DNA of 64,000 nucleotides from the NCBI RefSeq assembly GCF_049075655.1, contig NZ_CP157522.1:1598949-1662948 (forward strand), in the 5' to 3' direction. Positions 3,451 to 36,315 of this stretch are shown in pieces. Origin of the DNA: Methanothermococcus sp. Ax23. Its GTDB lineage: Archaea; AGJL01; Methanococci; Methanococcales; Methanococcaceae. The notes beneath the pieces were generated by a model. It worked only from the letters and a program-made list of their open reading frames with translations, was not told the origin of the DNA and made no database searches. A program made the position numbers and the translations under genes. Numbering within the stretch: position 1 is the first letter of the stretch; each line of letters begins with the position of its first letter.

Positions 3451-4053
3451 TTTTTTCACCGATAATAATATGATTAAAATAATAAAAACGTATAATAATA
3501 AGAAATTTTTCAATATATATTAATATTCAACATATATTTATTCAACCTATATTTAAATGATACTATAAAAATAGCAATTCTAAATATTCAAAATACATCC
3601 AATATTCATGTTATATAGATGGAATTAGCTTTTATAATTATATTATAATATCGTCAAATAATAAGTTGTCTAAATATTTATATAGATATTACTATTTTTC
3701 CCAATACTATTTTCTCAACGATTATTATTGGAAAAATGTGTATATAATATCATTACCAAAAATGTTTATTTATTTTAAAATATATTAAAATTACTAATAC
3801 TAATATTAAAAATTTGATTATAATATATTAATGTAGATAATATCATTATTAAATTTATAATTGGGTTTATATACTATAACAGTAAATGTATTTGCGAATA
3901 TTTATGAAAATTATTGAATGAATAATAATATTGTATATTTGGATATATTATTTTGATTTATTTAGACATTGCATTGGCAACTATTGTATGTTTATGTTAA
4001 AATTCGGTAATAGGTATTATAACTAATCCATACATAACAAGAGGCGATGATAT

Positions 4054-5340
4054 ATGGGGATGGAAGTAAATTCAATAATTGATGCGCTAAACACCCTAAC
4101 TACTGCGGGGGATGTATTCTTCCTGTGTGTTATGGGGGCAATGGTATTTATTATGCAATTGGGTTTTGCAATGTTGGAATGCGGTCAAGTTAGAAAGAAA
4201 AATGTCGTTAATGTTGTAATGAAAAACATGATTGATTGGTGCGTTGGTTGTATTTCATGGCTATTTATTGGTGCTGTTTTATGCACTTCACTAAATCCAG
4301 GAGATTTCATAGATTGGTGGAGTGAGATATTCACAGCCACTCCATTTTTAGAAAATAACGGAATTGAGTTGGCAAATTGGTTTTATGGATTAGTTTTTGC
4401 TGCAACAGCAGCAACCATTGTCTCAGGAGGGGTTGCTGAAAGGATAAAATTTAAAGCATATATTCTAATTTCGATAATAATTACAGTGTTTCTATATCCA
4501 TTCTTTGTTTATTTGGGTCCTTGGGGTGCAGGAGTTATAAATTGGCATGACTACGCAGGAAGTTTAATTGTTCATGGTTTAGGTGGATTCTTAGCATTGG
4601 GGGCAATTTTAGCATTGGGGCCAAGAATTGGGAAATTTAAAGATGGAAAACCAGTTCCAATTCTAGGACATAATATCCCAACAGCAGTTTTTGGAGCGTT
4701 TATATTGGCATTTGGGTGGTATGGATTCAACGTAGGTAGTGCATTGGCATTAAAAGACATTTCAGGGTTAGTATGTGCAACAACAACATTAGCAATGGCC
4801 AGCGGAGGAATTGGAGCATTGATTACATCCAAAAAAGACCCACTATTTATGGCAAATGGTATGGTTGCGGGTTTAGTTGCAATTTGTTCGGGAACTGATA
4901 TAGTAAGCCCAATTGGCGGGTTGATTATTGGATTGGTAGCAGGAGCTCAGGTTCCAATTGTATTTAAGTTTCTTGAAAATAAGAGATTGGATGATGTTTG
5001 TGGCGTTGTTCCCGTGCATGGAGTTGCAGGTGTCATTGGAGCAATTTTAGCGGGAATCTTTGGAATGCCAATATTTGGAGGACTTGGAGTAAATCCAAGT
5101 GATATTGTGAGTATTGTTGGAAGTCCAAACATTGATTTCTTACTATGGCAAATTTTCGCATCCATATTTTGTATAATTTACGGAACAGTTCTTGGTTATG
5201 TGATTACAGTTGCAATTGGTTTAAAATGTGGTGGTCTAAGAGTTGGCAGAGATGCGGAGCTCATGGGGCTTGATTTAGTGGAACATAAAATATCTACATA
5301 TCCTGATGAAGATGAACATTTTGTGATAAAGGATAAATAA
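4054..5340 (+). CDS. amt: Ammonium transporter (Amt family)
   Basis: [56 protein letters not shown] and C-terminal ELMGLD motifs. Confidence 0.95.
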
Positions 5341-5350
5341 GGTGATTCTT

Positions 5351-6796
5351 GTGGAATATCTAAAAAAATATGGAATTGGCACAAAATCAATAATTGTGGT
5401 ATTGTTATTTGCATCGGTTCTTTTAATCATTTGGATTATGGGAGCAAGTGCTGGAAACATAGGGAGTCAAGTTATAGGCGTTGTTGTTGGATTACTAATT
5501 GGTTTAAGCGTTTCTGTAATGATTACGCGAAAATATATGATATTAATAAACGATTTGGTAAATGCCGTTGAAGAAGTATCAGCTGGGAATCTTAATGTTA
5601 GAGTGGAAGGCAGATATGATGGGGAACTCGGGGTCTTAGTTGATGGATTTAACAAAATGGTAGCGAATCTTAAAGAACAAAAAAATGAAATAAGCCATGG
5701 ACAAAAAATGACATGGGTTCTCATAAAGGATTTGAAGAGAGTGATGAGTAAAGTTGCAAATGGAGATTTAACTGTAAGAATGAATGAAAGTATGGTGCAG
5801 GATGGAGTTAAATTAAAAAGTGTAGATATTCAAAAACTTATCAACAGAACTTTGGACAATGTTTCACACATGATAAAAGAACTAAAAGAGGAAGTTATTA
5901 ATTTAAACGAAGATATTAGTATAATTAAAGAGGAATTAAACCGAGCTAAGGAAGCATCCAGCCAAGTTGCAGACGCTACACAACAAGTAGTAGTAGCAGC
6001 AAACGACCAATCTGCCAAACTTCACGATATTTCACAGGAACTTGAAGGAGTATCCTGCATTACTGAGGAGGTATTTAATGCGGCAATAGATGGTGTTGAG
6101 GCTACAAAGATTGTGGAAGAGAATTCAAAAGTTGGAGTTAAAAAAGTAGAAAATGCAATTGAAACTATGAGGAGAATTTCAAAAGTGATTGATGAGTTAG
6201 GTAATGCAATTCAGGACCTTGGGGTAGAAAGTAAAAAAATCAATGAAATTACAGCTCTTATCAAGGGTGTTGCAGAACAGACTGGACTCTTAGCATTAAA
6301 CGCATCCATAGAAGCGGCAAGAGCCGGTGAAACGGGAAAAGGATTTGCAGTTGTTGCAAGTGAGATAAAAGACCTTGCAGAAGAAATAGGAAGGTCAATT
6401 GAAGATATAGATGAAACCATAGTGGAAATCCTAAATAAAATTGATAAGACCACGAACTTGGGATTAATGGAAAAGGATGAAGTTGATAAAGGAGTTGTAG
6501 CAATAGATGAAGTTAATAACGCATTCTTAAAAATTAGAGATAGTGTGGATACCGCCATGCGAAAAATAAACAATATAAAAGGAAATGCCCAGAAAGCAAG
6601 TGATAGCATCCAAAAGGCACTAAATGATGTTCAGGATGTTGTTTCAATATCAAAAGAGTTTGCTACAACTGCTGAGGAATTAACAGCAAATGTTAAAGAA
6701 CAAGACGAAGTTATTGAAGAAATCAGTGGAGCCACAGAGAAAATGGTTAAAATATCAAATAAACTTGCAGAATCTGCAAGTGAATTCAAAGTATAA
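5351..6796 (+). CDS. Methyl-accepting chemotaxis transducer (2 TM with short loop, 2 HAMP domains, signalling domain)
   Basis: [29 protein letters not shown] hairpin tip; two HAMP motifs ([17 protein letters not shown]); GTG 5351 follows aggtga RBS. Confidence 0.92.
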
Positions 6797-6813
6797 TATA
6801 TAATTATTGTTTT

Positions 6814-7132
6814 CTGACCTACTCCCACGACTGAAGTCGTGGGGTTCTTTTAGTAGGGTTTAACCCTACACGGGTGGCCAAGCCCACTACCCCTACCCTT
6901 TAAAGGGTTCAGGGCTACCTTATGCACTTCCAACCACTACCAGCGGTAGAGTTTTTACTAACCCTACCCATAGATACTTGGACTGGTAGCATTATTCACT
7001 ATGAAACTTCAAATATTTATGTTTTACTACTGACTAATTATAATGTCCGCCTCTCATCCAATTTCGTAAGAGATTTTACAAAACATAGTTTTGTATAACG
7101 ACTGAAGTCGTTGGCTTTCCCGGCGGTTTATC
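6814..7132 (-). mobile_element. Non-autonomous IS200/IS605-family mini-element, 319 bp, no ORF
   Basis: On the minus strand the right end is GAAC-cccacgacttcagtcgtggg-agtaggTCAG and the left end has AAAG-ccaacgacttcagtcg..ttgg, next to target TTAC (7133-7136). Confidence 0.85.
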
Positions 7133-18678: not shown

Positions 18679-20157
<1,479 letters not shown>

Positions 20158-20193
20158 TTAAAATCTATTTCTAATGTTTATTAATTATTACTT

Positions 20194-21510
20194 TTACATT
20201 TCAATTACATACTTGCTATCAAATGATTTAAAACCAGTTAATTCTTCAAGAGACTTTCCCCTTAACAATTCACGAGTTATTCTTTTTCCATCTTCAACAG
20301 AAGGTTGGTTGAATGCGTTTATTTCAAGGAGTTCACCCATAAATGCAGTTTGCATCTCATACATGTATATTAGTTTTCCAAGAGTATATTCATTTAATTC
20401 ATCTATTATAATAGAAACATTTGGGATATTCTTTGAAGTTAATGAAGCCTCAGTTCCTTCCTGTTCTGAGTTTATGAGCTCCGATAATTTATGAGCGTTT
20501 AAATAATTTGAGCTTTTAATGGTTAAGTCATGTCTGAATTCATCTACCTTTAAGAATGTGATTACCTTATCCCTTGGTCCATCTAAATAAAGTTGGAGTT
20601 GAGAGTGCTGGTCTTTTGCTCCAACAGATACAATAGGAGTCTGCCCCTTTCCATCCTTTCCAAGGCTTTCTGCCCATAACTGCCTATACCACATACCAAA
20701 TTTATGCAGTCTTTCAATATATGGCATAAGAACAGAAATTGTCTTTCCTTTATTGTATAGTATATAATGAATTACGGCATTCATAAGGGCAGGATTTTTA
20801 AAAATATCCTCATTTTTGCATAATTCATCCATTTCTCTTGCCCCTTTTACTAGCATTTCAATGTTTATGCCCATACATGACAGGGGAGCCAGCCCAACAG
20901 CAGATAATACTGAAAACCTTCCACCTACATTTTCAGGAATATCAAAAAGCATGTACCCCTCCTTCTCAGCAATATCTCGTAGCATTCCCCCATTGGCAAC
21001 CACAATAATATTTTTATTACAATTTCCAACTTTATCTATTAAACGGTCCCTAACAATCAAAAAATTTGCAAGTGTTTCAGCAGTATTTCCTGATTTGCTT
21101 ATTGCAAATACAAGTGTTTTTTCTAAATCAACCAAATTAAGAATTTCAAATGTTTTTTCTGGGTCAGAATTGTCTAAAAAATAAACTTTTTTGCTGGTTT
21201 TACGTTCATTGTAATAAATTCCTTTGACACCTTCATATACCATCTGAGCTCCTAAAACAGAACCGCCCATTCCAATAATTATAATATACTCAAAATCTTT
21301 TGAATATTTTTTTAGCATAGTATACGGGCGTAAATCCTGATGAACTAAATCCATAAATCCCAATTCTTTATTTTTATATTTTTCCAGTAATCCATTATAT
21401 GATTTGTTTATTTTATCCATTATATTTTCAATGTCTGTTGATGATACCCCTTCGTTACCTACTGTTTCTTCTATGACATTTGTATATTTAAATAAACATT
21501 TACCTTTCAT
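20194..21510 (-). CDS. pgi: Glucose-6-phosphate isomerase
   Basis: GMGGSVLG, SKSGNTAET, GGRFSVLS, QLWAESLGK and DQHSQLQL motifs. Confidence 0.95.
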   Translation of the reverse strand: MKGKCLFKYTNVIEETVGNEGVSSTDIENIMDKINKSYNGLLEKYKNKELGFMDLVHQDLRPYTMLKKYSKDFEYIIIIGMGGSVLGAQMVYEGVKGIYYNERKTSKKVYFLDNSDPEKTFEILNLVDLEKTLVFAISKSGNTAETLANFLIVRDRLIDKVGNCNKNIIVVANGGMLRDIAEKEGYMLFDIPENVGGRFSVLSAVGLAPLSCMGINIEMLVKGAREMDELCKNEDIFKNPALMNAVIHYILYNKGKTISVLMPYIERLHKFGMWYRQLWAESLGKDGKGQTPIVSVGAKDQHSQLQLYLDGPRDKVITFLKVDEFRHDLTIKSSNYLNAHKLSELINSEQEGTEASLTSKNIPNVSIIIDELNEYTLGKLIYMYEMQTAFMGELLEINAFNQPSVEDGKRITRELLRGKSLEELTGFKSFDSKYVIEM

Positions 21511-21706
21511 TATTCCCCTCTAATCTTTGCATCTAGATTATTTTTAATATACATATTTAATAGCAATTCCAAAACTAAAATATCATATTATTTAACAATA
21601 TGTTTTGAGAATCTCAATTTTAAGCGCTTTTACTTGTATTATTATATAAGATATAATATAAATATTTTAATACCACATGTTAAATTTGATTGATATCATA
21701 TAGGGA

Positions 21707-23278
21707 TTAGAAATAATGTTTATATATGGCTCCACCATAGAGTGCTTTATATTTATCTGCACTATCGTTATTTTGCCAGCTTAGATTTTTGTAGACGTGG
21801 TTATGGCAGTTTTTCATTAATGCTGTTAGAGGACCATCTTTCTCATAAGGACCTTCTGGGCAGTTAATATGCCTATAAGTTATAAACAAACATATTTCTT
21901 TTAATCTATAAAACGTCCAGTTCAAAGCATGCTCAATTCCCCATTTTAAACCATATTTGTCATAATTTTTAAATAAAATGCCGGTTGCTTTATCAAAGTT
22001 GGGATTAGTTAAGGGGTCGGGGTTTAATGGTATAATCGTATCCACCAACCCTCCAACTTCCCTCGCTATTACAGGTGTGCAATATGCCATAGATTCCATC
22101 TGGGTTAATCCACAGGGTTCCCAAACTGATGGTACAATTGTCCAATCACTTCCTGCATAAATAAGGGAGGTTAATGGAGGACAATGGCCCACTAATGAAA
22201 TAACCTTCCCATTGTATCTTTCAGCCAAATCCTTCATACCGTCTTCTATGTGTTTTTCACCTTTTGAAAGCATGATTAATCTTATATCATGTTCTTCAAA
22301 TAACTCGGGAAATGCTTCAAATATTATGTCAAATCCTTTTTGATATGTTGCACGTCCAACAAATCCTATTAATGGAGTAGTTACATCACCGCCTTTTATA
22401 TTGCCATAAATTTCAACATCTGTTCCTGAAATTCCACTTTTATCCATACTATTCCAGTCATCAACATATTTTTTTAAATTTTCAGAATTGTAAAACCATG
22501 CATATTTTATCTTTGGTTTTACAATATTGGCATCGTCTATGCCATAATCACATATAAAGGCATATTTTCTCGGGTCTAATTTGTTATCTGATAAAGACAT
22601 CATCTGTTTTATCATATTGCCTGAATTAAATATTTCAATGTCTATACCATTTAATATTCCATGAAATGGTTTTATATTACTTTGTTCCTTTATAAATTCA
22701 ATTGATTTTATTTCTTCTGCATGAGTTGGGCTTACAGTGTTAAAAGCATCACTAAAATATATTCCCAAATCTAAAAAAGACATTGTTAAGCCCTTATATT
22801 CCTTAATGGGACCTTTAAATGCTTCATTGTGTATTGTGATGGTGGTTGGTAAATCGAGTTTTTCATGACATTTTGCTATTGCAAGGCCACAAGGCCAGTC
22901 ATGACCCGAAACACAATCTACATTGTCAAATTTATCCAAATATGCTACTACTAAATCCGCAAATAAATCATACTTTAATGGGTCCCACGTATCCAATTCA
23001 TTGAAGTTTTTGTTGCTAAATGCGATTATATCCACACCAGTATTTGGATGCCTTGTTTTTATAACTTCGAATTTAAAGCTCGTCCCCTGGTATTTTATAT
23101 CCAATGTAGTTATTTTTTCATGAGGGAGATTCGAAATTTTGTTATTATGGTCGTAGGTTATAATTACTACTTCATTACCTCTATGTTTTAAAAATTTTGG
23201 CAAGTCCTGCATTACATCCCCCAAGCCCCCAATAGACGTCAAAGGTGCTATGGTCGGCGTCAATATTGCCACTTTCAA
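21707..23278 (-). CDS. glgA: Glycogen synthase (GT5)
   Basis: IGGLGDV, HDW, TIHN, GILNGID and PSVWEPCGLTQM motifs; TTG start 23278 after ggtga RBS. Confidence 0.88.
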   Translation of the reverse strand: MKVAILTPTIAPLTSIGGLGDVMQDLPKFLKHRGNEVVIITYDHNNKISNLPHEKITTLDIKYQGTSFKFEVIKTRHPNTGVDIIAFSNKNFNELDTWDPLKYDLFADLVVAYLDKFDNVDCVSGHDWPCGLAIAKCHEKLDLPTTITIHNEAFKGPIKEYKGLTMSFLDLGIYFSDAFNTVSPTHAEEIKSIEFIKEQSNIKPFHGILNGIDIEIFNSGNMIKQMMSLSDNKLDPRKYAFICDYGIDDANIVKPKIKYAWFYNSENLKKYVDDWNSMDKSGISGTDVEIYGNIKGGDVTTPLIGFVGRATYQKGFDIIFEAFPELFEEHDIRLIMLSKGEKHIEDGMKDLAERYNGKVISLVGHCPPLTSLIYAGSDWTIVPSVWEPCGLTQMESMAYCTPVIAREVGGLVDTIIPLNPDPLTNPNFDKATGILFKNYDKYGLKWGIEHALNWTFYRLKEICLFITYRHINCPEGPYEKDGPLTALMKNCHNHVYKNLSWQNNDSADKYKALYGGAIYKHYF

Positions 23279-23452
23279 AAATATCACCTTTATAATTACA
23301 TTAATATTTACATTAATAACAAAATTATATATGTTATTAGCATTATAAAAATTATGTGTCAATAACACATATCAAATATATACATGAATCAAATATACAT
23401 TAGAGAAATAAAAATAAATAAAAATAAGTAGTGTTAATAATTAAGTGATAAT

Positions 23453-24625
23453 ATGAAAATAGCCATGATAACTTGGGAATATCCGCCAATTATGGTGGGA
23501 GGATTATCGGTTCATTGTAAGGGTCTTGCTGAGGCACTTGTTAGGGCGGGGCATAGTGTCGATGTAATTACAATGGGTTATGATTTACCTGAATATGAGA
23601 ATATAAACGGAGTGAATATACACCGTGTAAAACCAATAGGGCATAGTCATTTTCTAACATGGATTAATTTCATGGCACATTTCATGGAAAAAAAATTAGG
23701 TTCATTAGGAATACATAACTATGATGTAATACACTGTCATGACTGGATGACTCATTTTGTAGGTAGCAATATAAAACATCTTTTTAACAAACCATATATT
23801 CAATCCATTCATAGCACAGAACAGGGAAGATGCGGTGGAATTCATTCTGAAGATTCAAGGGCAATAAACGACATAGAATGGTGGAGCACCTATGAATCCC
23901 ATGCAGTGATTACAGTTAGCAATTCAATAAAAGAAGAAATATGTTCAACATTTAATACTCCTTGGGATAAAGTAAATGTAATATATAATGGAATAAACCC
24001 TTGGGAATTTGACATACCAATGAGTGATAATGAAAAAAATGATTTTAGGATACATATTGGAGTTCAACCTCATGAAAAAATGATATTGTTTGTTGGAAGG
24101 CTGGTTTATCAGAAAGGCGTGGAATATCTAATAAGAGCATTTCCCAAGATTCTTGAACAGCATCCCGATTCAAAAATGGTAATAGCAGGTTCGGGGGATA
24201 TGCGAGGATATTTGGAAGATTTGGCATTTCAGCTTGGATGTAGGGATAATATAATATTTTTAGGATTTGTTGGAGGGGATATGCTGAAAAAGCTTTTTAA
24301 ATCTGCGGATGTAACCGTCATTCCATCAGTTTATGAACCCTTTGGGATTGTGGCACTTGAATCTATGGCAGCCGGAGCTCCTGTGGTTGCAAGTGGTGTT
24401 GGAGGTTTAAGAGAGATTATCCAGCATGAATATAATGGAGTTACTGTATATCCTGAAAATCCAGATTCTATTGCATGGGGTGTTAATAGGGTTCTTTCAG
24501 ATTGGGGATTTAAAGAATGGATTGTAAATAATGCAAAGCATGATGCATATACAAAATACAGTTGGGACGCCATAGCAAACAGCACAGTTGAAGTTTATAA
24601 CAAGGTGATAGACTCTATAAAATAA
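23453..24625 (+). CDS. GT4-family glycosyltransferase of the glycogen cluster
   Basis: WEYPPIMVGGL, HCHDW and PSVYEPFGIVALE motifs. Confidence 0.88.
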   Translation: MKIAMITWEYPPIMVGGLSVHCKGLAEALVRAGHSVDVITMGYDLPEYENINGVNIHRVKPIGHSHFLTWINFMAHFMEKKLGSLGIHNYDVIHCHDWMTHFVGSNIKHLFNKPYIQSIHSTEQGRCGGIHSEDSRAINDIEWWSTYESHAVITVSNSIKEEICSTFNTPWDKVNVIYNGINPWEFDIPMSDNEKNDFRIHIGVQPHEKMILFVGRLVYQKGVEYLIRAFPKILEQHPDSKMVIAGSGDMRGYLEDLAFQLGCRDNIIFLGFVGGDMLKKLFKSADVTVIPSVYEPFGIVALESMAAGAPVVASGVGGLREIIQHEYNGVTVYPENPDSIAWGVNRVLSDWGFKEWIVNNAKHDAYTKYSWDAIANSTVEVYNKVIDSIK

Positions 24626-24698
24626 ATAAAAAAATATTAAATAATATATATGATAAATTAATATGTTTATATATTGTGTTAAATTATGAGGTGGGAAT

Positions 24699-24917
24699 AT
24701 GGAAGATATGTGGTTAAAAATAGGCGAGGCTGCTGGTAAGATTTATCACCTATTAGAAGACGGTGAAAAAAATATTACAAAATTAAAAGAATCTCTTAGG
24801 AGCGAGGGGTATAATGAAACTATTATTGTTATGGCAATAGGATGGCTTGCAAGGGAGGATAATATAATTATTATAAGGGATGGGAGAAAATGGATAATAA
24901 GATTAAAAAATGGATAA
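24699..24917 (+). CDS. Small winged-helix protein (DUF2582-like)
   Basis: IGEAAGKIYHLL..MAIGWLARED motif; gaggtgg RBS. Confidence 0.8.
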   Translation: MEDMWLKIGEAAGKIYHLLEDGEKNITKLKESLRSEGYNETIIVMAIGWLAREDNIIIIRDGRKWIIRLKNG

Positions 24918-24973
24918 ATTCTATTTCATTTACTTTCGGTATCTAATTATTTATATATGTATAAAGTGGTAAT

Positions 24974-27031
24974 ATGGTAGGAATTATAGGAAATGGAAAA
25001 TCTCTTGCAAAATTGGATGATGTGGGGTCTATTGAATATATATTCTTTCCACATTTGGGTTTTGAAAAACATATCTTTGACTCTGCATTTGCAATATATT
25101 GTGATGGCGAATTAAAATGGCACTGGGATTACTCATGGAAAATCAGTCAAGGATATTTAAAAGATACAAATATTTTAAAAACCACATATGAAGATGAGAA
25201 CTTTTTAGTAAGTTCTATGGATTATATTTCAATATCTCACAATATCCTAGTTAAACAGATATCCATTCTCAACAGAACAGAAGAAAAAAAGCATTTAAAA
25301 TTATTTTTCTATGAAAATTTAAGGATGGGAGAATATCCAAAAGAGAATACTGTTAAATTTTTAAAGAATAATAATTGTTTAATTAAATACGATGGAAAAT
25401 ATATTTGTTGTATGGGAAGTGGTAAAAACATATCATCATATCAATGTGGTTTGAGGTCGTCTGAAAGTAGTGCCTATAATGATATTGAAAATGGTGTTTT
25501 AAAAGAACAGGATACTGCCAAAGGATTAATTACCGATAGTGCATTATGTTGGGAGATTGAATTAAATCCCTTCCAAGAAGTAGTTATTCCCATATATATA
25601 CTAATGGCGGAATATAACGACAACTACTATGATATTATGAACTTAATAGACACATTAAAAGTAGTTGCTAAAAATAATGAAGATATGTATAATCTCTCCC
25701 TAACTTATTGGAAAACCCTCGTTCAAGATACTGTCAATAATTTATCTACAACGAAATGTGCAAATCTAAATGTCGAGAGACGGAAAAAATACATCGATAC
25801 ATGTAAAAGGTCTTTACTAACAATATTTATGTTGTGTAATCACGATGGGGGCATAATAGCTTCACCATCATTATATCCCGATTACAGATATGTATGGAAT
25901 AGAGATGCAAGCTATATGTCTGTTGCATTGGATTTATGCGGCTTATCCCCTATGAGCGAAAAATATTTCGACTGGTGCAAAAAAACCCAAAATAGCGATG
26001 GGTCATGGATTCAAAATTATTATATTGATGGAAAACCTCGATTAACTGCAATGCAAAATGACCAAGTTGGCACTACAATTTGGGCAGCTCTGGTTCATTA
26101 TAGGATTACACATAACAAATTATTTTTAAAAAGACATTGGAATATGATTAAAAAAGCTGCAAATTATTTAGCTAAAACTGTGGAACCTCCATCTCCATGC
26201 TATGATTTATGGGAAGAAAAATATGGGGTGTTTTCATACACAATTGGGGCAACATATGGTGGTTTAAAATCTGCCTGCAATATTATGAATATATTAGAAA
26301 AAGAATGCGAATATAAAATGACCAATGACGATAAAAAATGTTTTAAACAGTGGAGCTCAGCTATCGAATCATTAAAAAATAATGTTAATAAATTTTATTT
26401 AAAGGAAGAAAATAGGTTTGCAAAATCAATAACTCCACTGGATAAAACAATTGACACCAGCATATTGGGATTAAGCTTCCCCTATGATTTAGTTCCAGCA
26501 GACGACCCAAGAATGATAGCGACAGCATTGCAGATTGAAAATGCATTTAACTATAAAATCGGGGGAATTGGAAGATATCCAGAAGATGTATATTTTGGAG
26601 GCAATCCATGGATAATAACTACCTTGTGGTTATATATGTATTATAAAAGGCTAATTAAATTATTGTCAAAAGATATAAATCAGAGATTTTCCAGACCTGG
26701 ATTTGTAGAATATATAGGGGACTGCGAAAAACTACAATCATCTCGAAAAGATGAGCGAAATGATGATGTGAATGTGAATGTGGATGATGTTGTTCAATCT
26801 TTAAATAATATCCAAAGCGTGAATATGACAAAAAAGGACCTTATTAAACACTGTCATAAAAAATGCGACGAGCTATTTAACTGGGCATTGAAGCATCAAT
26901 ATAATGGACTATCTCCTGAGCAAATTCACAAAGACCTCGGAGCTCCCATATCGGCAATTCCCCTTGGTTGGTCACATGCTGCCATAATAATGGCAATTCA
27001 CAGCAATGATTATGATATTTTAATTCCATAA
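24974..27031 (+). CDS. Glucoamylase (GH15)
   Basis: YVWNRD, DLWEE, RYPED, PEQ and PLGWSHA motifs. Confidence 0.92.
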   Translation: MVGIIGNGKSLAKLDDVGSIEYIFFPHLGFEKHIFDSAFAIYCDGELKWHWDYSWKISQGYLKDTNILKTTYEDENFLVSSMDYISISHNILVKQISILNRTEEKKHLKLFFYENLRMGEYPKENTVKFLKNNNCLIKYDGKYICCMGSGKNISSYQCGLRSSESSAYNDIENGVLKEQDTAKGLITDSALCWEIELNPFQEVVIPIYILMAEYNDNYYDIMNLIDTLKVVAKNNEDMYNLSLTYWKTLVQDTVNNLSTTKCANLNVERRKKYIDTCKRSLLTIFMLCNHDGGIIASPSLYPDYRYVWNRDASYMSVALDLCGLSPMSEKYFDWCKKTQNSDGSWIQNYYIDGKPRLTAMQNDQVGTTIWAALVHYRITHNKLFLKRHWNMIKKAANYLAKTVEPPSPCYDLWEEKYGVFSYTIGATYGGLKSACNIMNILEKECEYKMTNDDKKCFKQWSSAIESLKNNVNKFYLKEENRFAKSITPLDKTIDTSILGLSFPYDLVPADDPRMIATALQIENAFNYKIGGIGRYPEDVYFGGNPWIITTLWLYMYYKRLIKLLSKDINQRFSRPGFVEYIGDCEKLQSSRKDERNDDVNVNVDDVVQSLNNIQSVNMTKKDLIKHCHKKCDELFNWALKHQYNGLSPEQIHKDLGAPISAIPLGWSHAAIIMAIHSNDYDILIP

Positions 27032-27170
27032 TAAAATAAATATTTTCATCAATGAAGCGAATATATAAAATCATTTAAATTTATATTTTCTCACTTTTTG
27101 GAAATCTGCAAAATCAATAGTATATATTACTTCGCAACATAAATAAAAAAATAAAAAATAAGGGGATAAA

Positions 27171-28751
27171 ATGTTAATTTCATTTAATTTTGAGGTGCAT
27201 CAGCCCCATAGATTAAAAAAAACGGTTGATGGACACAGTAAAAATATATGGGATAGGTATGTTGATGTTGAATTAAACAAAGAGATATTCAATAGAGTAG
27301 CAAATAAATGTTATATTCCTGCAAATAGGACAATTTTGGATTTAATAGATGAGTATGACATTAAAGTGGCATACAGCATTACAGGCGTATTTCTTGAACA
27401 GGCCATGGAATTTAATAATGAGGTTTTAGATTTATTTAAAGAGCTCGTAAAAACAGGGAATGTTGAACTTATTGGGGAAACCTACTATCATTCACTTTCA
27501 AGTCTCTTTGAAAATCATGATGAATTTAAAGAGGATATTGAAAAACATAAGAAGATTATCAAAGAACTATTTGGATACAAAACTGAGGTTTTTAGAAATA
27601 CTGAATTAATGTATAATAATAATATAGCTGAAACCGTTAAGGAATTGGGATTTAAAGGGATATTTACAGAAGGTGCCGATAGAATACTTGATTGGAGGTC
27701 TCCAAATTATGTATATAACGCTCCATGTGGATTGAATGTCCTTTTAAGAAACTATAAATTAAGCGATGATATTGGATTCAGATTCTCATGTCCAGATTGG
27801 AATGAATATCCTTTAACTGCTGATAAATATGCATCATGGTTGGCGAGCTCCCCTGGTGATTGTATAAATATATATATCGATTATGAAACCTTTGGAGAAC
27901 ACCAATGGAAAGAAACTGGGATTTTTGAGTTTTTAAAATATCTTCCTGCGGAAATTGAAAAATATCATAATCTTGAATATGCAAAACCTTCTGAAATAAT
28001 TGACAGATGCACACCGAGGGGGGAAATAGATGTCTTTGAATTCTCAACATTATCGTGGGCAGACTCTGAAAGAGATGTGAGTGCATGGTTAGGCAACAGG
28101 ATGCAGAAGCTTTCATTTGAGAGATTAAAAGATATTAGGCAATACCTTGGAAGATACATATCATCGAAATATGCTAAACATGGGGGCAATGTTCAAGATG
28201 ATGAAATAATGGAATATAAATTATATAAAAACCTTCAAACAAGTGATAATTTTTACTATCAATGCACAAAGGGATTTAACGATATGGATGTGCATTCTTA
28301 TTTTAGCCATTTTGAAACTCCTTATGATGCTTATGCCACTTATATGGATATTCTTTATGATTTTAAAAATCATTTAATAGTCAGTCAAATTTTGGACAAA
28401 TATGTTAAAAAAATTGAAAGTTTGAACTTGGAGATAAAAACATTAAAAGAAAATGACCGGTATAAAAATGAGAATATGGCATTGACTAATGAAATAGAGA
28501 ATTTAAGAAGTAAATTAAAATTATTGGAAAAGGACATAAATAATAAAAACAAAGATATTCAAAAACTAAAAAATGAAAATAGTAAATTAATTAATGAAAT
28601 CATAATGTTAAACTCAAAAGCTCCCAATAACTCGAAGAGTAAAAAAATAAAAAAAAATAATATAGAGGAGCCAAACTTAAAAGATATAGAAGATAAACCT
28701 AATGAAAAAGAAAAAAAACATAATCTTGACGAATTTATAATTGGCTCATAA
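27171..28751 (+). CDS. GH57 alpha-amylase with a C-terminal coiled-coil/low-complexity tail
   Basis: FEVHQP, ETYYHSL, FRNTEL and DYETFGEH motifs. Confidence 0.92.
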   Translation: MLISFNFEVHQPHRLKKTVDGHSKNIWDRYVDVELNKEIFNRVANKCYIPANRTILDLIDEYDIKVAYSITGVFLEQAMEFNNEVLDLFKELVKTGNVELIGETYYHSLSSLFENHDEFKEDIEKHKKIIKELFGYKTEVFRNTELMYNNNIAETVKELGFKGIFTEGADRILDWRSPNYVYNAPCGLNVLLRNYKLSDDIGFRFSCPDWNEYPLTADKYASWLASSPGDCINIYIDYETFGEHQWKETGIFEFLKYLPAEIEKYHNLEYAKPSEIIDRCTPRGEIDVFEFSTLSWADSERDVSAWLGNRMQKLSFERLKDIRQYLGRYISSKYAKHGGNVQDDEIMEYKLYKNLQTSDNFYYQCTKGFNDMDVHSYFSHFETPYDAYATYMDILYDFKNHLIVSQILDKYVKKIESLNLEIKTLKENDRYKNENMALTNEIENLRSKLKLLEKDINNKNKDIQKLKNENSKLINEIIMLNSKAPNNSKSKKIKKNNIEEPNLKDIEDKPNEKEKKHNLDEFIIGS

Positions 28752-35834: not shown

Positions 35835-36245
35835 TTATTCATAAAGGTGCTTTGTTCCCTCAGTGTTTGCTCCTCGTTCTATAAGCATTTTAACAATATC
35901 GGGTTGAGTATAATCCTCTGCCACCATGAGAACCGATAATCCAAAATCATCCTTTGCATTTACATCTGCACCATGTTCTATTAGTAATTTTGCTATTTTT
36001 GTATAGCTGAGCTCTATAACTGACATCAGTGGCGTCCTTCCTATCCGATTTCTTACATCCACATCTGCACCATTTTCTATTAACAGTTTAACAACATCAT
36101 AGTGATTTTGTAGTGCAGCCGCCATGAGTGGAGTTCCTCCAAACTTATTTTTGGCATTTACATCAGCTCCTTTTTTTAACAATTCCTTTACTCTCTCAAT
36201 GTCTCCACTTTCTGACGCCTCTATTAACTCCATGTCTAAACCCAT
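35835..36245 (-). CDS. Ankyrin repeat protein (about 4 repeats)
   Basis: Repeated GxTPLM..A and LLIENGADV(N/D) units; aggtga RBS. Confidence 0.92.
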   Translation of the reverse strand: MGLDMELIEASESGDIERVKELLKKGADVNAKNKFGGTPLMAAALQNHYDVVKLLIENGADVDVRNRIGRTPLMSVIELSYTKIAKLLIEHGADVNAKDDFGLSVLMVAEDYTQPDIVKMLIERGANTEGTKHLYE

Positions 36246-36268: not shown

Positions 36269-36315
36269 GGAAATATAATTCCTATTTATATACTAATATA
36301 AGGAAATATATTTCC
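36269..36315. promoter_or_regulatory. Tandem NrpR operators (GGAA-N6-TTCC) at 36269-36282 and 36302-36315
   Basis: GGAA-ATATAA-TTCC and GGAA-ATATAT-TTCC, centres 33 bp apart, between a minus-strand BRE/TATA (tttatatg, 36346-36353) and the ankyrin gene RBS. Confidence 0.78.

Follow-up and report, generated by a model that had tools for sequence, protein, structure and literature searches.

The subject of this analysis is a pair of adjacent genes in a 64,000-nucleotide (nt) stretch of DNA from Methanothermococcus sp. Ax23 (contig NZ_CP157522.1, positions 1,598,949 to 1,662,948 of the forward strand), which is referred to here as the window. The first gene, amt, encodes a protein of the Amt family, and the second encodes a chemotaxis transducer of the methyl-accepting chemotaxis protein (MCP) type. 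The two genes may form one transcription unit that encodes an ammonium receptor and its transducer, a reading with a probability of about 0.45, slightly short of even. According to this reading, the Amt trimer would select NH4+ through its normal pore, and the ion would bind at the N1/N2 pocket below the twin histidines, as in Sd-Amt1 and Ks-Amt5. Binding would change the conformation of Amt, and the change would be passed to the MCP, which has no sensor domain of its own. The contact could be made by membrane helices, or by the altered cytoplasmic tail of Amt on the membrane-proximal HAMP domain. The MCP would relay the signal via its HAMP unit or units to a CheA/CheW array, and swimming would be steered along ammonium gradients. 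The reading supposes co-transcription of the genes, physical contact of the proteins, ammonium as the signal, signalling in the direction just described, and a Che pathway elsewhere in the genome. A contact within the membrane is pure conjecture.

The spacing of the two genes is consistent with a single unit. The MCP gene starts 1-10 nt past the amt stop on the same strand, as seen in the list of open reading frames (ORFs) and in the sequence itself. Amt ends with a stop codon at 5340 and has no fused C-terminal transducer; the MCP is a separate ORF. The initial annotation of this DNA had placed the amt stop at 5340, the transducer start at 5351, and a ribosome-binding site over the stop, and all three are confirmed by reading the sequence. 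The database form of the MCP has 481 amino acids (aa) and thus corresponds to the start at 5351. No long T-run is present between amt and the MCP gene. The narrow gap and the ribosome-binding string over the stop make co-transcription likely. Upstream of amt, TTTATATA-type TATA-like boxes occur at 3677 and 3866, and a hairpin downstream of the MCP gene (6823-6852) is a possible end of the two-gene transcript. The base composition of both genes is the same as that of their neighbours. Horizontal transfer of amt or the MCP gene was considered and set aside, as there is no compositional anomaly.

The MCP gene occupies the position that is usually held by a PII gene (glnK). A PII gene lies directly downstream in 73 of 80 other amt loci and within 5 kb in 78 of the 80. 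These comparison loci are mostly haloarchaeal and at best 57% identical, and neither the 72-77% identical Methanococcales relatives nor the window's own genome is among them. According to PMC9765008, a glnK accompanies each of the two amtB genes of Methanothermococcus thermolithotrophicus. PMC2723118 describes GGAA-N6-TTCC as the NrpR operator, which stands upstream of the M. maripaludis glnK-amtB genes. The survey and these two papers support the earlier premise that pairing with glnK and control by NrpR are the norm. The window amt differs from this norm in both respects. A tblastn search of the 64 kb with a PII protein gives a best E value of 1.6, and Pfam finds no PII gene among the 57 ORFs, so that the absence of glnK, first remarked for the genes adjoining amt, extends across the window. 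The NrpR box had also been reported missing upstream of amt, and no GGAA-N6-TTCC is found in the 540 nt from 3514 to 4053 even when one mismatch is allowed. In comparison with the canonical amtB-glnK/NrpR unit, the locus therefore lacks both glnK and the operator, and the MCP takes the downstream slot.

The product of amt is a complete member of its family. Pfam PF00909 (Ammonium_transp) matches residues 23-416 with an E value of 1.2e-104 over profile positions 2-399 of 399, and the NCBIfam model TIGR00836 'amt' gives 366.7 bits against a cut-off of 343.3. Among named relatives, those from Methanofervidicoccus, Methanothermococcus, and Methanocaldococcus are closest, and the protein shares the Methanococcales clade of the M. 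maripaludis Amts, to which it is 63-66% identical. Its twin-His pair is formed by H174 and H322 and its Phe gate by F115 and F225, and the outer Ser is S229. They align to His-169/His-323, Phe-98/Phe-221, and Ser-225 of Sd-Amt1, respectively. GWYGFN is present. Alignments to solved structures and to the clade thus bear out the earlier statement that the twin-His pair and GWYGFN are kept.

In addition to the pore, Amt contains residues that are typical of ammonium receptors (AmR). The signature of the two-ion N1/N2 sensing pocket is given in PMC11152129, on Sd-Amt1, as Q-X6-E-X15-N-X2-D-[F/T]-X54-60-T-X2-[S/T]. All six cited ligand residues are found in the window Amt by alignment (Q35, E42, N58, D61, T121, and S124), and the spacings between them are 6, 15, 2, 58, and 2. 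Six of the seven specified signature positions agree; the F/T position is W62, at a site that does not serve as a ligand in Sd-Amt1. There is no Tyr wall, as Tyr-27 of Af-Amt1 is replaced by E42 in the alignment. PMC11152129 also reports that an Asn narrows the cytoplasmic exit of Sd-Amt1 where transporters carry Ser. N268 of the window Amt aligns to Asn-269 of Sd-Amt1 and to Ser-251 of Af-Amt1. Of the solved structures, Sd-Amt1 (E 3.5e-47) and Ks-Amt5 (E 4.2e-46) match best, ahead of the transporters Af-Amt1 (4.3e-40) and AmtB of E. coli (about 1e-29).

The MCP comprises a membrane hairpin, a HAMP region, and a signalling domain. Hydropathy places the first transmembrane helix (TM1) at about residues 16-35 and the second (TM2) at about 44-62, with an 8-residue dip, SAGNIGSQ, at 36-43. 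A family search finds no sensor-domain family in residues 1-60, and there is no extracellular domain. A low-confidence single-sequence model (mean pLDDT, a per-residue confidence score, of 52.8), which is used for helix boundaries only, agrees with the hairpin in its secondary structure. These results match the description in the initial annotation of two transmembrane helices joined by about 8 residues without an extracellular ligand domain, and the MCP signalling domain named there is equally clear (E 8.5e-36). The claim of two HAMP domains is half shown. The first is firm (E 6.7e-14), whereas the second is below threshold, with an E value of 0.0044 and 17.7 bits against a cut-off of 25, and its match covers the first helix only. 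A specific likeness to HtrII, as proposed, is not supported. The protein is closest to MCPs of Methanococcales that carry PilJ or Cache sensor domains, and it aligns to them from TM2 onward with 45-58% identity. About 130 columns that are invariant among 10 aligned Methanococcales MCPs are retained, including the hairpin tip of the signalling domain. Judged by its sequence, the MCP is a working-looking transducer that has no input domain and no known ortholog and is not a specific relative of HtrII. An origin by simple deletion of a PilJ sensor domain was also considered; from TM2 onward the protein aligns to the PilJ-type relatives, but its TM1 does not align to theirs.

Natural proteins that join Amt and MCP in a single chain provide independent support for the general idea, put forward with the first annotation, that the input of a chemotaxis transducer can come from an Amt module. 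An MCP signalling domain is present in 7 of 23 Amt-containing proteins of at least 750 aa, and Pfam shows a full Amt in these fusions, followed by HAMP or PAS and lastly by MCPsignal. Among the best 150 representatives at 50% identity that are matched by one fusion, 82 contain both domains, and Amt comes first in all 82. In a protein atlas, fused proteins make up two clusters, with 90 and 99 members that are all bacterial and most often from Pseudomonadota, and one Amt::MCP fusion is named for a Halobacteriales archaeon. The fusions are 32-41% identical to the window Amt, and the N1/N2 ligand set occurs in all seven that were checked (7/7). Examples of such single-chain Amt::HAMP/PAS::MCP proteins are P0242, P0244, P0245, P0248, P0252-P0254, and P0265 onward. 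No description of an Amt-MCP fusion or pair was found in the full-text literature searched, with most subscription journals outside the search. Neither form is mentioned in the main text of PMC5764959, in the main text and two supplements of PMC11152129, or in passages of the Amt review PMC10433425. A broader view is that Amt modules serve as the input of widespread ammonium chemoreceptors, which are mostly single-chain Amt::HAMP::MCP proteins, and that the receptor is here split in two proteins, with a trimeric Amt that signals sideways to the MCP, in the manner of a sensory rhodopsin and its transducer. This extension is doubtful at present.

The window Amt has several features that its relatives lack. 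The initial annotation had pointed to an extra loop before the last helix, and this loop is confirmed as a net 14-residue insertion that is missing in 14 of 14 aligned relatives. Its placement in a loop follows from alignment to Sd-Amt1, and it is predicted to lie on the outer face from the Amt topology with the N-terminus out and the C-terminus in, which is given in the review PMC10433425. The N-terminus is shorter than in aligned relatives, and the cytoplasmic tail has the substitutions E399R and A415T at positions that are at least 90% conserved. Over the whole protein, 16 private substitutions occur at such positions, and the median is 3 per protein. Private changes beside pocket or pore residues include G43C, N52V, M55V, T266M, and T324V. 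The terminal branch of the window Amt is 0.40 in the tree, compared to a median of 0.07, and the protein is 72-77% identical to every relative, whereas identity among the neighbouring groups is 81-90%, with 81-82% between the two of them. A paralog cluster with 70% identity, P0026, is named for a Methanothermococcus strain, and the window Amt falls outside the tree group that holds it. The window Amt appears to be a second copy beside this conventional paralog in the same genome. A sister position beside P0003/P0005, obtained in a quick tree (SH-aLRT branch support 86), was dropped, as the finished tree does not fix the position of the window Amt.

The same private features bear on two explanations without a dedicated Amt-MCP complex. 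The first is an accident of one lineage, in which a sensor-less MCP paralog landed behind an amt paralog without glnK, one or both of them now drifting with no joint function. The long Amt branch, the likely second-copy status beside P0026, and the single occurrence of the pair in the searched databases would all fit such an event. A drifting pair is nevertheless difficult to reconcile with two intact reading frames, the conservation of all catalytic and signature residues of Amt and of the roughly 130 invariant MCP columns including the signalling tip, and a composition that matches the host, and this explanation is considered improbable. The second is indirect coupling without specific contact, in which Amt acts as an ammonium transporter and the MCP responds to what the flux causes nearby, for example a movement of charge or a change in pH or internal ammonium at the membrane. 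The transport pore residues are all intact, the MCP has no recognisable ligand domain, and according to PMC11152129 the 'cluster 2' Amts include proven transporters and may hold bifunctional proteins, all of which is compatible with this mechanism. The private outer loop and the altered tail are easier explained by a new partner surface. To our knowledge, no known MCP works in this way with a transporter, and there is only a small chance that the present one does.

A number of observations weigh against a two-gene ammonium receptor. In the Methanococcales Amt clade, 49 of 53 rows have the six ligand residues, proteins of M. maripaludis and M. vannielii among them, and the exit Asn is present in all 53, so that the AmR signature places the clade and not the window copy. 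The M. maripaludis Amt shares the signature, and its glnK-amtB genes form an ordinary nitrogen-regulated operon according to PMC2723118. Four clade members exceed the window Amt in private substitutions (P0050 with 26, P0040 with 24, P0045 with 22, and P0041 with 20), and its place inside the clade is not fixed by the finished tree. The fusions join HAMP directly to the last Amt helix, whereas the window MCP has two helices of its own and the window Amt a full tail; they therefore demonstrate a general functional link and not this mechanism. No Che family, CheA, CheW, CheR, and CheB included, is found by Pfam in the 57 ORFs of the 64-kb window, and a working Che pathway in this genome is thus assumed. 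A co-directional MCP downstream of amt is found in 0 of 80 loci from other genomes, mostly haloarchaeal. No second pair was seen in these loci or among the MCP relatives, which leaves the adjacency unique to this strain as far as checked, an outcome that the initial annotation had named as counting against its proposal. In a weak and indirect test over 52 Amt clusters of the clade and 49 MCP clusters of Methanococcales, the longest contigs have lengths in common only where these are chromosome-sized. The 90% cluster of the MCP consists of one sequence, and the next relative, which is 58% identical over 91% of the length, has a PilJ sensor domain. Other Methanococcales also contain two-helix hairpin MCPs without a sensor domain, namely P0149, and P0164 and P0165 of M. 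voltae. They show no sign of linkage to Amt, and for the two of M. voltae the longest contigs differ from that of the clade Amt of this species, P0050. Such MCPs need not depend on an Amt.

These last observations lend support to an alternative in which the MCP acts on its own and detects, via its hairpin or HAMP region, a stimulus other than the state of Amt. Membrane potential, proton-motive force, and temperature are candidates, and a common transcript with amt would then reflect no more than co-regulation or chance gene order. The absence of the pair elsewhere and the unlinked hairpin MCPs of other Methanococcales agree with it. A possible model is MpcT (Htr14) of Halobacterium, which in PMC7289035 is listed as a two-helix membrane-potential transducer with no operon partner; it is likened to the window MCP by description and not by sequence. 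The tight spacing with the MCP in the slot that is usually glnK's, the many natural Amt::MCP fusions, and the divergence of Amt itself speak for a link between the two proteins, although each of these is compatible with an independent MCP sensor. An autonomous MCP is therefore regarded as rather unlikely, though clearly more probable than an accident or indirect coupling. The receptor/transducer pair is the preferred interpretation, and the original proposal of Amt as a transceptor that signals to the transducer stands in part. It is strengthened by the receptor residues, the fusions, and the absence of glnK and an NrpR box, and weakened by the clade-wide signature and the lack of a second pair. 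Cofolding of Amt (with a 15-row alignment) with MCP residues 1-125 gave a score of 0.00 in two runs, compared to a mark of 0.32; it was made without controls and with an Amt monomer and one MCP chain, which is not the natural stoichiometry, and it counts as evidence neither way.

The characterised ammonium receptors most similar to the proposed pair are Sd-Amt1, an Amt-HAMP-diguanylate cyclase, and Ks-Amt5, an Amt-histidine kinase. The window Amt resembles both in its selectivity pore, N1/N2 ligands, and exit Asn, and a HAMP unit again stands between the membrane and the output. In contrast, an MCP signalling domain takes the place of the cyclase or kinase as the output in the window and is found on a separate polypeptide with two helices of its own. 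The Trp at the F/T position of the signature is a further difference. The window pair would work like an AmR, yet it lacks the fused transducer that defines one. The natural Amt::HAMP/PAS::MCP proteins, which are uncharacterised (P0245, P0252, P0254, P0242, and P0244), have the same ligand set and an MCP output like the window pair, but in a fused chain where HAMP or PAS comes straight after the last Amt helix. Their Amt-HAMP-output plan is that of Sd-Amt1 with another output.

Sensory rhodopsin (SR) systems of archaea offer a second comparison. Transducers of the SR type have two membrane helices and little or no outer domain. Archaeal transducers that are encoded beside a receptor or binding protein are described in PMC7289035 and comprise SRI-HtrI, SRII-HtrII, BasT/BasB, and CosT/CosB. 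The window transducer is likewise encoded beside its would-be receptor. However, this receptor would be a trimeric 11-helix transporter instead of a 7-helix rhodopsin or a binding protein, and the MCP is no close relative of HtrI or HtrII. Of the SR-Htr type with its two HAMP domains, the window MCP has the hairpin and a firm first HAMP, with the second below threshold.

If the broader view of a split Amt receptor is correct, the locus would encode the first transporter-based receptor/transducer pair for chemotaxis. Ammonium receptors with an Amt fold are a young field with two characterised members, Ks-Amt5 (2018, kinase output) and Sd-Amt1 (2024, cyclase output). With a chemotaxis output, the Amt fold would be tied to motility, and prokaryotic ammonium taxis would gain a molecular receptor, of which none is described in the full-text literature searched. 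The split form would allow tests of how a sensor with three-fold symmetry signals to a transducer with two-fold symmetry, and it would add a non-rhodopsin example to the archaeal receptor/transducer pairs. The fused bacterial versions are tractable systems for testing the idea. The coordinates of the features of the locus are given in Table 1.

Table 1. Features of the amt-MCP locus, in window coordinates.
Feature	Position	Strand	Description
AT-rich upstream region	3514-4053	+	540 nt; GC 0.16-0.18; divergent from topoisomerase VI subunit B
amt	4054-5340	+	complete Amt-family protein, 428 aa (P0001)
Amt-specific insertion	5086-5136	+	residues 345-361, net 14 residues; loop between last two membrane helices
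Cytoplasmic C-terminal tail of Amt	5236-5337	+	diverged and extended; clade consensus there SEEEEKxGLDLAEHKLPAYPEEE
Shine-Dalgarno-like AGGTGAT	5340-5346	+	overlaps amt TAA stop; 4 nt before GTG 5351
MCP/transducer gene	5351-6796	+	481 aa from GTG 5351; alternative GTG 5342 gives 484 aa (P0002)
Membrane hairpin	5387-5527	+	TM1, loop SAGNIGSQ, TM2; hydropathy, no family match
HAMP domain 1	5546-5677	+	Pfam PF00672, E 6.7e-14, residues 69-112
Second HAMP-like unit	5684-5905	+	helix-connector-helix; ANGDLTVR motif common to relatives; below Pfam threshold
MCP signalling domain	6113-6640	+	Pfam PF00015 MCPsignal, E 8.5e-36, residues 258-433
Hairpin	6823-6852	+	9 pairs, then TTCTTTT; 27 nt past MCP stop; overlaps HgcC-like RNA on other strand

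A different association of amt with taxis genes is seen in Haloarcula. In 9 of the 80 loci, an ordinary amt-glnK pair is preceded, at a distance of about 460 nt and on the opposite strand, by a gene for a soluble MCP-domain protein (L064, 1546-7942; L044, L052, L055, L061, L066, L075, L076, and L077). The Haloarcula amt-glnK set stands among taxis genes, with a PAS histidine kinase also divergently upstream, and an Lrp/AsnC regulator and a CheC-like gene downstream. CheC-like matches occur in 12 of the 80 amt loci.

The 64-kb window contains three exact matches of GGAA-N6-TTCC, at 4645, 36269, and 36302, a number within chance, as 15 of 100 shuffles reach 3. The match at 4645-4658 is within the amt coding region and is probably a chance occurrence. 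The other two are exact NrpR-type operators 33 nt apart (36269-36315), one on either side of a TATA-like string, and they immediately precede an ankyrin-repeat gene of 136 aa (35835-36245, minus strand). From these two flanking copies it is concluded that the organism does use the motif. The ankyrin-repeat gene may be nitrogen-regulated; a nitrogen-related function is not obvious for it.

Between the MCP gene and rpl15e, a GC-rich segment on the minus strand (6801-6953) gives a whole-model match to HgcC RNA that is below threshold (26.5 bits versus 50, E 4.5e-4). It folds better than all 200 shuffles (z -3.12) and is probably a small structured RNA gene. The region 18679-28751 contains a sugar/glycogen cluster with an ADP-dependent kinase, glucose-6-phosphate isomerase, two glycogen-synthase-like glycosyltransferases, GH15, and GH57, and this cluster looks ordinary for the group.

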